From positions 416,001 to 480,000 of the forward strand of contig CAVSBQ010000002.1 in NCBI GenBank assembly GCA_963726265.1: a stretch of 64,000 nucleotides of DNA, in the 5' to 3' direction. Source of the DNA: Candidatus Aenigmatarchaeota archaeon (GTDB lineage Archaea > Aenigmatarchaeota > Aenigmatarchaeia > QMZP01 > QMZT01). The position numbers and the translations under genes were made by a program. The notes beneath the pieces are model-generated. The model searched no databases and was not told where the DNA came from. It saw only the letters and a program-made list of their open reading frames with translations. Each line of letters begins with the position of its first letter. Position 1 is the stretch's first letter. Below are positions 2,013 through 64,000 of the stretch, piece by piece.

Positions 2013-2564
2013 ATGGATTTTGCGCGCGTGCTCAAGACAGGTGCAGCCGCCGGCGCCATCTACGGCGTCCTGCAGGGCATAGTTGCCGTCCTGTCTTTCG
2101 TTTTCTACAGGGAGCAGATAATAGAGGTGATGAGGGCAGCGATACCATCTGGCGTCAACATAGGCATGACCATGGACCAGCTCGCAAACATCAGCATGAT
2201 GACTGCGATACCGGGCTCGGTTATAGGCGGCATAATATCGGGCATAATCGTGAGCTTCATTTTTTCGCTGATGTACGGGGAGCTCATGGGGAAGGATTCG
2301 AGAAGGAAGGGCATTTTCCTGTGCATCCTCCTGACGATAGGCGTAGTGCTCGGCGAACTCGCATACCCCGGAGGCTTCGTGGGCAGCATACTGCTCATCC
2401 AGACAGGATATCTCATGCTCGCCCCGCTCAGCATCGCATTCTTCTTATGCCTCGGCTACCTCACGGGCATTTTCTACGACAGGTTCGAAGACAGCAAACA
2501 TAGGAAAAAGGCAGCGGAATGCAAGCCGGACGAGGAAAAGGAAAAGTCCCACAAGAAAAAATAA
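2013..2564 (+). CDS. Hypothetical multi-pass membrane protein
   Basis: About 4 hydrophobic segments, charged C-terminal tail. Confidence 0.7.
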   Translation: MDFARVLKTGAAAGAIYGVLQGIVAVLSFVFYREQIIEVMRAAIPSGVNIGMTMDQLANISMMTAIPGSVIGGIISGIIVSFIFSLMYGELMGKDSRRKGIFLCILLTIGVVLGELAYPGGFVGSILLIQTGYLMLAPLSIAFFLCLGYLTGIFYDRFEDSKHRKKAAECKPDEEKEKSHKKK

Positions 2565-2580
2565 ACCGGCAATGTAATAA

Positions 2581-2598
2581 AAAAATCAATTTATAAAC
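2581..2598 (+). promoter_or_regulatory. BRE/TATA promoter for the tRNA-iMet/endonuclease locus
   Basis: AAAAATCAATTTATAAA ~25 nt upstream of AGCGGGGTGGAG at 2623. Confidence 0.6.
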
Positions 2599-2622
2599 AC
2601 TCCTCTTTATAAAATATAACAC

Positions 2623-2634
2623 AGCGGGGTGGAG
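2623..2634 (+). repeat. Isolated copy of tRNA-iMet nucleotides 1-12 (AGCGGGGTGGAG), doubling as RBS of the endonuclease
   Basis: Exact match to the spliced 5' end of the tRNA at 3207-3303; its GGAG ends 5 nt before ATG 2640. Confidence 0.85.
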
Positions 2635-2639
2635 AAATA

Positions 2640-3224
2640 ATGACACTGAATAAAATATTTTTAGAAAATTTAACGGAAACTGAAAAGGGATATATTATCG
2701 GTTTGTTTATTGGAGATGGCTATTCTTATTATGATAAAAAACATAGACATTATACAATTGAATTTTATTTGAATTCAGAACGCAACAAGAAAATACAAAA
2801 ACAATTAATTTTCTTATTGGAAAAAATTGGATTGAAGTGTTTTGTTTTAAAGGACAAGAGGTTTAATTGCAATAGAATAAGAGTTTATTCAAAACATCTA
2901 GTTAACTTTTTGAATTCATCTGTGATAAGAAATTGTAAAATCGATTTCGGTATTGGTTATGTATCAGGTATTATAGATTCTGAAGGCTATGTAAATCATG
3001 AAAAAAGTTTTGTTAATGTAGTTAGCACAAACAAAGACGTATTGAAAAATTGCAAGAATATTTTGAAAAAATTTAAAATTGAAGCTAAAATTAGAAATAG
3101 AAAAAAATCTAGCAAAGATAAAAAGAAATCTTATATATTACACATATCATACAAGATTAAAGATATAAAGTTAAATTCGATTAAGATGAACAGCGGGGCA
3201 ATGCTTAGCGGGGATTGTCTTTGA
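2640..3224 (+). CDS. LAGLIDADG homing endonuclease (two-motif)
   Basis: Motifs GYIIGLFIGDGY and GYVSGIIDSEGY; very AT-rich versus flanks; no Hint/extein context. Confidence 0.9.
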   Translation: MTLNKIFLENLTETEKGYIIGLFIGDGYSYYDKKHRHYTIEFYLNSERNKKIQKQLIFLLEKIGLKCFVLKDKRFNCNRIRVYSKHLVNFLNSSVIRNCKIDFGIGYVSGIIDSEGYVNHEKSFVNVVSTNKDVLKNCKNILKKFKIEAKIRNRKKSSKDKKKSYILHISYKIKDIKLNSIKMNSGAMLSGDCL

Positions 3225-3303
3225 GACAACCGCAATGGAGCAGCCTGGAGTGCTCGCTGGGCCCATAACCCAGAGGTCGATGGTTCAAATCCATCCCCCG
3301 CTA
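3207..3303 (+). tRNA. tRNA-iMet(CAT) with 22-nt intron 3214-3235 at position 7/8
   Basis: Spliced AGCGGGG|TGGAGCAGCCTGGAGTGCTCGCTGGGCCCATAACCCAGAGGTCGATGGTTCAAATCCATCCCCCGCTA; A1-U72 and three G-C pairs in the anticodon stem indicate initiator; BHB: GCGG/CCGC helix, bulges GG^A and AA^T. Confidence 0.92.
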
Positions 3304-3335
3304 TAATATTTTATAATATTCCATCAGGTGGTCGT

Positions 3336-3665
3336 CTGAAGTGGCTGTTGCTTCTGATCGCAGGCATTATTCTTGTTTCCGGGTGCGTTCAGACGCAGCA
3401 GGCTTCGCAGGATATTTCCGAGCAGGCGAAAGAGAAATGCATCGGGATATGCATGACTATCAGCTCCGACCTTTCGGGCAGAAGCCCATGCCTTTCCGAC
3501 AACAATTCCGAATGGAACATAAGCGGCTGGGTCTGCGACGTCGCGCATTCGCCGAGGCAGGCGATGGATGACCTGCCAGAGAACCAGTGCAGCGAATTCC
3601 GCGAGGGGAAGGCGAGCCATTTCGTCGAAGTCGATGCGGCCTGCGAATTCATACGCGCCGTATGA
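3336..3665 (+). CDS. Small Cys-rich lipoprotein (start probably CTG 3336 or TTG 3348)
   Basis: KWLLLLIAGIILVSGC lipobox-like; several further Cys; GGTGG RBS before CTG. Confidence 0.7.
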   Translation: MKWLLLLIAGIILVSGCVQTQQASQDISEQAKEKCIGICMTISSDLSGRSPCLSDNNSEWNISGWVCDVAHSPRQAMDDLPENQCSEFREGKASHFVEVDAACEFIRAV

Positions 3666-62338: not shown

Positions 62339-62674
62339 TGTTGTGCCGGGCATAGCCCATTTTCTGTCATCTCACGAGGTTTGATCCTCGAATGAGGCGA
62401 TAGCATTTTTCTAAGTCGTGTCCAAGCAGACCGGCATGCGAAACGCATGCCTTTCGCTTTTTCACTTTCATCCGTGCGGCGCGAACTATTTCACCCTTGC
62501 GCTCCTTCCACGCTTTTCCTTGCGGAAGCATCGCTCCGAAGCGAAGGTCATTTTCTGCGTTTGCGCGCGTTCTCTCGAACGCCGTCTTGCGACAGCACAC
62601 ACGCCATTTATTGGCTGGATGTATGGAACTTGCCTCCCTGCTTGCGCAAGGCGAGCTATCCACCCGGCTCAACA
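62339..62674 (-). ncRNA. rnpB: RNase P RNA
   Basis: P1 GTTGAGCCGGG/CCCGGCACAAC; CR-I GAGGCAAGTTCCAT pairs with CR-V ACAGAAAATGGGCTA; GNRA/UUCG hairpins; TTTAAA box upstream. Confidence 0.9.
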
Positions 62675-63760: not shown

Positions 63761-63939
63761 GCTAACTAATTAATAATTTGTCTGGGAGTTTTTTAAACAT
63801 TTCCGTTTGTGAAAATAGATTTTTGGAAATATACAAATCAAAGTATTCTTTTTTGTCTTTATTTTTGTCAATTAGAGCTTCCGCTGATAGCGGTTCAAAT
63901 GAAAAAAATAGAAATTAGGCGAGTTGTCCTTTTGACAAG

Positions 63940-64000
63940 GATCTGTCAGGGTATTGGTTAACGTGGGCTGAATGCCTCGCCGAAGCTTGGCACTTACACC
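63940..64000 (-). rRNA. rrl: 3' end of 23S rRNA (partial; end approximate)
   Basis: GGTGTAAGTGCCAAGCTTCGGCGAGGCATTCAGCCCAC resembles the archaeal 23S terminal helices. Confidence 0.8.

Follow-up and report, generated by a model that had tools for sequence, protein, structure and literature searches.

In this paper we describe a locus at positions 2581 to 3303 of a 64,000-nucleotide stretch of archaeal DNA (hereafter the window), where the gene for the initiator tRNA-Met is disrupted by a gene for a LAGLIDADG homing endonuclease. We propose, with a probability of about 70%, that a mobile homing-endonuclease cassette invaded this tRNA gene at the DNA level, after nucleotide (nt) 12, and left the tRNA usable. 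The evidence for this is the anatomy of the locus, the linkage of the endonuclease family to the same tRNA gene, a common breakpoint, the geometry of a bulge-helix-bulge (BHB) splicing motif, the processing enzymes of the host, the allele polymorphism within one genus and the co-clustering of endonuclease clades with intron positions.

An earlier interpretation of this DNA, made from the letters alone (the sequence-only reading), had claimed a TATA box, tRNA nt 1-12, an open reading frame (ORF), additional AGCGGGG copies and the rest of the tRNA at this locus, and when the sequence was re-read all of these elements were present at the positions claimed. They lie on the forward strand. The TATA-like box TTTATAAA (2590-2597), presumably part of the resident tRNA promoter, ends 25 nt upstream of the original tRNA start, and box and spacing are kept in four same-genus alleles. 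The original tRNA 5' end, nt 1-12 (AGCGGGGTGGAG, 2623-2634), is stranded behind this promoter and is called the stub below. Relative to the empty alleles, the inserted cassette measures 606 bp and occupies 2635-3240, although it can equally be written as 2630-3235 because TGGAG is repeated at both ends. The GC content is 0.18-0.30 over 2550-3199, compared to 0.45-0.64 in the flanks. Within the cassette, an intact ORF for a two-motif, monomeric LAGLIDADG homing endonuclease of 194 amino acids (aa) starts with ATG at 2640 and ends with the stop codon TGA at 3222-3224. The GGAG at 2631-2634 lies 5 nt ahead of this ATG and is likely a modest Shine-Dalgarno sequence provided by the stub, since the 16S rRNA of the genome ends in ...GATCACCTCCT. 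The last 33 nt of the ORF hold two more copies of AGCGGGG, that is tRNA nt 1-7: a spare copy at 3192-3198 and a copy at 3207-3213, which in the spliced alignment is the functional exon 1. A BHB mini-intron of 22 nt follows at 3214-3235 (tRNA position 7/8), and exon 2 reaches from nt 8 to the discriminator base (3236-3303). The replacement 5' end of the tRNA carried by the cassette is 3207-3213 plus 3236-3240, and the native one is the stub.

The tRNA body is readily recognised: 3236-3295 aligns to positions 8-63 of the Rfam tRNA model with 32.2 bits, and aragorn calls Met(CAT) at 3234-3303, which is the body only. When 3207-3213 and 3236-3303 are joined, aragorn folds the product into a complete tRNA-Met(CAT) cloverleaf. 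The joined tRNA has A1:U72, and its anticodon stem carries three G:C pairs at the base, features which we take to be initiator marks; CCA is absent from its encoded 3' end. A group I intron was considered as well and rejected: an Rfam scan of 2400-3500 (E up to 1) matched only the tRNA and found no group I ribozyme core, and the ORF occupies nearly the whole insert. The host genome consists of 1.13 Mb in 4 contigs, has about 52% GC and is 88% complete. The ORF is single copy in this genome and the tRNA body matches one site only. Running aragorn with intron search over the whole genome gave 36 calls, many of them doubtful, which we used solely to show that Met(CAT) is called once. The locus appears to be the sole initiator tRNA gene of the genome, and therefore the tRNA must work.

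One sign of mobility comes from the comparison of alleles. Five same-genus alleles align through the promoter flank and tRNA nt 1-12 and diverge right after. In two of them (G001 and G002) the tRNA simply continues after nt 12, so these are the empty alleles that the sequence-only reading had called for, and a contig of run X2, from another study, is a relative's allele that joins 2629 to 3236 without the 606 nt. The window and G003 continue after nt 12 with AAATA... and an endonuclease ORF. The fifth allele, G004, has CA and a 31-nt intron at this point, identical to the G003 intron, and no endonuclease; a low-depth contig of run X1 likewise shows the promoter, tRNA nt 1-12, CA and a 31-nt D-loop intron, and lacks the endonuclease gene. 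As the enzymes of the window and G003 are only 48% identical and their mini-introns differ (7/8 versus 14/15), we regard them as two separate invasions at the same breakpoint. L052 and L056 each keep the C-terminal 28 residues of an older endonuclease as a relic; then come AGCGGGGTGGAG, a C and the ATG of a complete second endonuclease. In both, a newer cassette has thus re-invaded an older one after nt 12-13 of its tRNA start.

The phylogeny of the endonucleases is in agreement with mobility. We built a quick maximum-likelihood tree of 44 endonucleases. Of the 61 rows, 17 did not enter it: 11 had stops within the matched range, 2 were short and 4 were identical. The intron class changes 13 times on this tree, against a mean of 27.4 for shuffled classes, and none of the 200 shuffles was as low. 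The window's enzyme falls in a clade of five 7/8-class elements with a support of 96 (Shimodaira-Hasegawa-like approximate likelihood ratio test, SH-aLRT), one of which comes from a different family of the order, and the G003 enzyme belongs to a separate clade with 14/15-class elements (SH-aLRT 99). Stops or frameshifts interrupt the profile match in 7 of 68 loci, and such decay is typical of homing-endonuclease genes. The family thus combines a presence/absence polymorphism at one site with a phylogeny unlike that of its hosts, which is the hallmark of homing endonucleases. According to Goddard and Burt, patchiness, decay, discordance between clades and hosts and a common breakpoint are reportedly the usual signature of the homing-endonuclease life cycle.

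The mobile-element proposal of the sequence-only reading depended on homologues being linked to tRNA genes, and this linkage is borne out by 56 of 60 metagenome loci plus 7 genome loci that adjoin the initiator tRNA. Among 41 related genomes that were searched, the tRNA body was found in 39 and an ORF homologue directly upstream of it in 4; the genome loci with an endonuclease just upstream of the tRNA body are L007, L012 and L026, together with L025, which is decayed. Of 91 genomes of the order that were searched, 10 have an endonuclease match of 1e-10 or better. Eight of these ten, counting the window, adjoin this tRNA or reach a contig end with a stub (L033, L035, L038), and the tRNA body is also found downstream of the endonuclease in L033 and L035. 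The most distant matches, with about 30% identity, lie inside small subunit (SSU) rRNA genes of the same order (L039 in G025 and L041 in G010), and by this sequence relationship the tRNA-linked clade may be derived from, or sister to, rRNA-intron enzymes. The same layout exists in a Pacearchaeota genome (L032), the sole match of a scan of genome contigs with the single protein. A profile scan of metagenome contigs yielded far more, namely 60 loci; the initiator tRNA body is just downstream of the ORF in 56, and in the remaining four either the contig stops within the ORF (two) or the flanks are short or divergent (two).

The stub is a regular part of this layout. We scored nt 2-12 at the ORF start with at most 2 mismatches in 11, and found them in 42 of 58 distinct loci with enough flank versus 0 of 58 control windows inside the ORF, so the stub is not there by chance. 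Many homologues start with M-R-G-G/R-E, which is ATG followed by tRNA nt 3-12, and many end with K-A-G or N-S-G, which is AGCGGG in two different frames. Since AGCGGG is read in two frames, it is the nucleotide and not the protein sequence that is conserved at the ORF ends.

The encoded protein itself looks like an active monomeric homing endonuclease. In Pfam the 194-aa ORF matches LAGLIDADG_3 (3e-16, in two stretches) and Hom_end (7.5e-9), with weak WhiA matches. The LAGLIDADG motifs are at about residues 19-28 and 106-116, each with a terminal acidic residue; D26 is invariant and E115 is found in at least 90% of 40 homologues, which are 45-66% identical to the window's protein. A profile built from these 40 homologues has I-DmoI as its best solved relative (5.7e-8). 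The AlphaFold2 (AF2) model shows the pseudo-dimeric alpha-beta-beta-alpha-beta-beta-alpha fold and has a mean predicted local distance difference test score (pLDDT) of 89.6 and a predicted template modelling score (pTM) of 0.85, and its top Foldseek matches are I-DmoI-DNA complexes (E about 5e-11, template modelling score 0.64-0.72, about 21% identity).

The first alternative to consider is that the gene is resident and immobile, for example a domesticated LAGLIDADG factor (maturase-like or DNA-binding), and that the duplications are old scars without present function. The linkage is indeed ancient and wide, with endonucleases down to 34% identity beside the same tRNA, and the weak Pfam matches recall the WhiA-type LAGLIDADG proteins, which are non-nuclease relatives. 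Nevertheless we find this explanation unlikely. A resident gene would not be expected to be as patchy as this one (10 of 91 genomes of the order), to have empty, intron-only and two differently occupied alleles in one genus, to cross host families in its tree or to be broken in 7 of 68 copies. Its GC content of 0.18-0.30 in a 52% GC genome, the conservation of the catalytic D26 and E115 and the nearest folds, which are active I-DmoI structures, argue against it as well.

If the cassette is mobile, the next question is how the tRNA is restored. Cleavage of a BHB motif occurs at a bulge nucleotide. The window has two 3-nt bulges (GG|A and AA|T) on opposite strands with a 4-bp central helix between them, formed by GCGG (3208-3211) and CCGC (3230-3233). 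Inside this, TTGTC/GACAA form an inner hairpin of 5 bp (3215-3219 with 3225-3229), and its loop contains the TGA stop at 3222-3224. The stop codon of the nuclease thus lies inside the 22-nt intron, as the sequence-only reading had noted, and likewise in L007, L043, L044 and L083. Only the last 11 nt of the ORF (3214-3224) are within the intron, so the ORF is not intron-encoded. The motif has the strict hBHBh' form, with full scores for the central helix H2 (4/4) and the first four pairs of the inner helix H3 (4/4), and 4/5 for the outer helix H1. A new feature is that this outer helix appears to be formed with the leader, in which TGCTT (3202-3206) would pair with GAGCA (3238-3242). Its pair probability is 0.72-0.85 in the long precursor versus about 0.1 in the short one, where the D stem forms. 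The outer helix is missing in the 10/11 class, which has the relaxed form.

The geometry is conserved in the relatives. Among 48 distinct mini-introns H2 is 4/4 in 41, H3 is 4/4 in 40 and both are in 36. When the 3' partner is shifted by 1-3 nt as a control, no more than 2 of 48 introns have an H2 of 4/4 and no more than 1 has 4/4 in both helices. The 7/8-class motif is also present in 10 other loci with changes that keep the pairs, GCGG:CCGT in several of them and ACGG:CCGT in L033, whose tRNA has A at nt 2.

A different route to the same mature tRNA would be one large BHB intron, by which EndA removes 2630-3235 (606 nt) with ribosome-binding site, ORF and stop from a transcript starting at 2623. 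GCGG at 2624-2627 would then pair with CCGC at 3230-3233, the inner AGCGGGG copies would be incidental, and the element would resemble the ORF-bearing introns of archaeal rRNA genes. This has some appeal: the stub of the window is a perfect exon 1 at the distance of a tRNA start from the promoter, H2 is 4/4 with the stub in 19 of 21 testable loci, the excised RNA would be a complete mRNA and the RNase P step would be unnecessary. The helices argue against it. With the stub H2, H3 and H1 score 4, 0 and 2, compared to 4/4, 4/4 and 4/5 for the small intron, which the sequence-only reading had also preferred. When 2623-3306 is folded with a partition function, the inner hairpin is all but certain, and the probability that CCGC is paired is 0.000 for the stub and 0.33 for the local copy (0.50 in the short precursor). 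Across the 55 intron-bearing loci, the large intron is impossible in 13 where the intron lies beyond nt 12 and the stub is too short. A further 21 have no stub that is found by the strict pattern, and in the remaining 21 the inner helix with the stub is always weaker (0-3 of 4). In many loci the stub is ATGCGGGG, with an extra T, and would give the wrong 5' end. The large intron would furthermore leave the conserved local exon and hairpin without explanation, and we consider it even less probable than a resident gene. From the quality of the local BHB, and because the stubs of some relatives seem unable to serve as exon, we conclude that 3207-3213 would be the working exon 1 and that stub and ORF would form a 5' leader or a separate mRNA.

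It is also conceivable, but very improbable, that the spare copy at 3192-3198 is the true exon 1, made without leader from an internal TATA box, and that an intron of 37 nt, 3199-3235, encloses the 3207 copy. This would not alter the mature product, the distance between TATA box and start suits 3192, and when the 115-nt precursor is folded, 3192-3198 and 3296-3302 make up the acceptor stem. On the other hand, a BHB at 3198|3199 would be without an inner helix next to it, and the partner of CCGC is the local copy (p 0.5) rather than 3193-3196 (p 0.000-0.002). The spare copy of the 10/11 class has only 6-7 nt, too short for an exon 1 of 10 nt.

Finally, the duplicated tRNA starts might have been made by a chimeric assembly, as the source is a metagenome-assembled genome and short repeats can fool assemblers, but there is next to no chance of this, as Logan contigs of run X1 tile 2450-2708, 2694-3155 and 3154-3311 across both junctions with 0 differences and the identical layout recurs in dozens of unrelated contigs and genomes.

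The host encodes the enzymes that the small intron would need. Its splicing endonuclease EndA is one 398-aa protein with a full-length match to the ARMAN-2 ε2 enzyme (PDB 4fz2, 2e-108), and a RtcB ligase is found with 518 bits. A candidate RNase P RNA, likely a divergent gene, is located at 62341-62672 on the reverse strand (Rfam RF00373, full model, 81.2 bits, E 3e-23, against a gathering score of 84). Enzymes of the ε2 type cut strict as well as relaxed and non-canonically placed BHB motifs in vitro, and the tRNA genes of ARMAN-2 are heavily disrupted (PMC3239211).

To compare the mini-intron across the family, we took the spliced tRNA of the window as the query of a splice-aware alignment against 68 loci linked to an endonuclease, with a small cost for intron extension, and refined the intron register by BHB geometry. 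L033 was read by eye, as the aligner chose the spare AGCGGGG over the AACGGGG exon. In total 61 of the 68 loci could be scored; the 7 others scored too low, mostly on contigs that end in or just after the ORF. The counts include relatives and are not independent. A mini-intron of 17-53 nt is found within the first 17 tRNA nt in 55 of the 61 loci, at positions 4/5 (n=8), 7/8 (n=11), 10/11 (n=20), 13/14 (n=1), 14/15 (n=4), 15/16 (n=8) and 16/17 (n=3). Of 23 scorable initiator tRNA loci of this order that have no endonuclease, 4 carry an intron within the first 17 nt, and most of their introns are at 31-61. Three of these four share cassette classes (L016 and L013 at 10/11, and L021 with the same intron as L026), and the fourth, L019, is masked with N and unreliable. 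All seven intron positions are at most 8 nt from the nt 12/13 breakpoint. A second new observation is that the DNA breakpoint is fixed at nt 12/13 and the intron position varies between the endonuclease lineages. The footprint of a LAGLIDADG enzyme is typically about 20 bp. Because all seven positions fall within such a footprint around the breakpoint, the intron plausibly immunises the new copy, and it probably shields it from the enzyme.

These observations lead to the following model. The cassette would strand the original first 12 nt of the tRNA gene behind the resident promoter, and the endonuclease mRNA would then have the stub as its 5' untranslated region and ribosome-binding site. Behind the ORF, the cassette would provide a new tRNA 5' end, split at 7/8 by the 22-nt BHB intron. 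The working tRNA would be made from 3207-3303, either by read-through from the resident promoter or from a start near 3192 set by a TATA-like box. The ε2 EndA would cut at 3213|3214 and 3235|3236, RtcB would join the exons and RNase P would trim the leader; the promoter used and the order of processing are presumed. The endonuclease presumably binds about 20 bp of the uninterrupted tRNA gene around nt 12/13. An invaded allele would be immune, with a stub that has no right half-site and a new copy that is split by the intron. Intron-less alleles would be cut and converted, and endonuclease gene and mini-intron would travel together. As checks of a mobile element the sequence-only reading had named tRNA-linked homologues, empty alleles and a duplication that is no assembly artefact, and these came out in its favour.

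Several points weigh against this model. Where the enzyme would cut, what it would recognise and that the intron-bearing copy would be immune are deduced from the arrangement. The endonuclease tree comes from a quick search and its kin are not independent; the X1 contigs, perhaps from the source sample, give an independent assembly and not independent biology. Six of the 61 scorable loci (L064, L069, L081, L085, L086 and L091) have the endonuclease immediately before a tRNA without 5' intron, so the intron is not always needed. Four of these six have A at nt 7 of the tRNA, and three of their four stubs have G there, and one could speculate that a substitution of nt 7 confers resistance in intron-less loci. 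A clear stub is lacking (more than 2 mismatches) in 16 of 58 loci, most of them of the 4/5 class with a few others. L012 has G7 in its stub versus A7 in its working tRNA, which requires co-conversion or a later change. The internal promoter box discussed below overlaps a conserved protein motif and is confounded with it. As a separate observation, in several of the intron-less loci the ORF continues into the tRNA and has its stop in the D-loop.

The promoter geometry raises the question where the pre-tRNA starts. Across loci, a TATA-like hexamer begins 29-31 nt ahead of the stub, with a peak at 30 (18 of 34), and the resident promoter presumably drives the ORF. A TATA-like hexamer also begins 28-29 nt ahead of the spare AGCGGGG in 20-21 of 28 loci, which is the geometry of a genuine promoter; the functional tRNA start lies at widely varying distances from it. 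The window's inner box, ATATAAA (3163-3169), is located in the 3' end of the ORF 28-29 nt before 3192. This spacing suggests a candidate second promoter, newly found here, from which the pre-tRNA would begin near 3192 and have a leader of 15 nt.

The spare copy at 3192-3198 is accordingly placed to be a candidate for the region of transcription start, for a stand-in for the partner of the 3' acceptor strand, or for both. The BHB of the 7/8 class borrows acceptor-stem bases 2-5 and leaves the 3' acceptor strand free. In silico, the partner of 3296-3302 is the spare copy (p 0.87-0.98) if the precursor starts at 3192, and the stub (p 0.85-1.0) in the long transcript. The spare AGCGGGG copies at 2623 and 3192 could therefore be stand-in partners of the 3' acceptor strand during BHB formation and not scars. 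Such a role could account for the presence of spare copies with the acceptor-borrowing introns (4/5, 7/8, 10/11) and not with the D-loop introns. We find them in 20 of 20 loci of the 10/11 class, 5 of 8 of the 4/5 class and 6 of 11 of the 7/8 class. A clear spare copy is found in none of the 16 loci of the 13/14 to 16/17 classes (three have a weak GCTGGC) and in none of the 6 intron-less loci. This association is suggestive; the copies were scored by pattern match and by eye, and their presence is confounded with the endonuclease phylogeny.

A wider and more tentative hypothesis, which we hold to be possible but would not bet on, is that such cassettes are an engine by which DPANN archaea acquire non-canonical mini-introns in their tRNA genes, with the spare copies serving as stand-in strands. 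The BHB mini-intron would serve each cassette as its own means of immunity. If the stub and the replacement copy then recombined, the endonuclease gene would be lost, and what remained would be an allele with the intron alone that resists cleavage. The G004 allele and the X1 strain look like such intron-only products, judging from introns that are identical or near-identical to that of the occupied G003 allele.

Several known systems share parts of this arrangement. I-DmoI and I-Tsp061I, which are found in BHB introns of archaeal rRNA genes, also have about 190 aa, two motifs and an acidic pair, and have in common with our locus an archaeal host, a conserved RNA gene as target and repair via the BHB splicing enzymes. 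They differ in that here the ORF lies outside the spliced intron except for its last 11 nt, the target is a tRNA gene with a duplicated 5' end and a leader has to be removed besides splicing. In collaborative homing, which is reportedly found for F-CphI with the psbA intron of cyanophage S-PM2 and for mobE with the I-TevIII intron of T4, an endonuclease gene outside the target gene works with a self-splicing group I intron in a phage protein gene. Here too the endonuclease gene is outside but next to an intron in its presumed target, so that the pair would be inherited jointly, and endonuclease clades co-cluster with intron positions. The intron, however, is spliced by proteins (BHB) and the cassette is inside the gene.

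The closest parallel for the replacement of a gene end comes from fungal mitochondria. There, mORF endonuclease genes are found in atp6, atp9, cox2 and nad3 together with a replacement C-terminal piece, and in examples such as atp6 of Allomyces macrogynus and those of Glomus sp. the native end is stranded beside the insert (PMC3630166). Both systems bring an endonuclease gene into a conserved gene with a substitute for the displaced end, and in our family a second copy of that end is inserted with the endonuclease and the stub is found in 42 of 58 loci. In fungi a protein gene has its 3' end replaced; the nucleotide sequence of the substitute differs from that of the native copy (64-81% identity in Glomus), while the protein stays much the same. 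In our case the replaced part is the 5' end of a tRNA, in which nearly every base is important, and the substitute is split by a spliceable BHB mini-intron. The disrupted tRNA genes of ARMAN-2 and Thermoproteales resemble ours in having a short non-canonical intron with two 3-nt bulges and a 4-bp helix and an ε2 EndA; unlike here, their introns are described without a linked mobility gene, and a term search gave no mention of homing or initiator tRNA (PMC3239211). The archaeal group I introns reported in PMC6125680 are all in rRNA genes.

In the full-text literature, with subscription-only papers outside the scope, we found no description of an endonuclease gene in or beside an archaeal tRNA gene and no report of a non-canonical tRNA intron tied to an endonuclease gene. 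How introns at odd positions of archaeal tRNA genes originate and spread is a long-standing question. Randau and Söll are said to have proposed that gene disruption shields tRNA genes from elements targeting them. The locus family is a concrete and testable case, in which a selfish DNA-cutting gene is aimed at the most conserved tRNA of the cell, the mini-intron resembles an immunity device and natural alleles of every stage exist within one genus. It indicates that an endonuclease gene can invade an RNA gene outside an intron by bringing a replacement gene end, a trick so far described for fungal mitochondrial protein genes. Judging from their sequences, the enzymes should be new compact nucleases with a specificity of about 20 bp. 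Another consequence is practical: tRNA finders overlook such genes, as aragorn called the body only.

Some further observations concern the tRNA genes of this order. Aragorn finds one tRNA within the 64-kb window, and most tRNA genes of the genome are probably disrupted and overlooked by standard finders. Endonuclease-free initiator tRNA genes can carry up to four short introns, as in L024 (G019), where they follow linear positions 34, 39, 45 and 61, and also in L013, L019 and L021. A 21-nt T-loop intron is common to many genomes of the family. In L012/L047, L026 and L079 the tRNA stub is tandemly duplicated upstream of the ORF (a repeat of about 46 nt); the second copy starts with the ATG of the ORF and a TATA-like box lies between the copies. 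In several metagenome loci (L055, L057, L049, L076, L078 and L101) the promoter region of the cassette comes immediately after the 3' end of another tRNA gene, which makes the invaded initiator tRNA part of a tRNA cluster there.

The neighbourhood of the locus in the window contains a PCNA homologue at 991-1755 on the forward strand (PCNA_N 1e-16, PCNA_C 1e-9), about 0.9 kb upstream of the tRNA locus. Between the two is an ORF at 2013-2564 for a Yip1-like membrane protein, which is under the Pfam cut-off. At the right edge of the window, the 3' end of a large subunit (LSU) rRNA gene is found on the reverse strand (about 63934-64000) and extends past the window (L103, 3094-3332), and the SSU rRNA gene lies about 4 kb beyond the edge (G000:C2:483816-485373).

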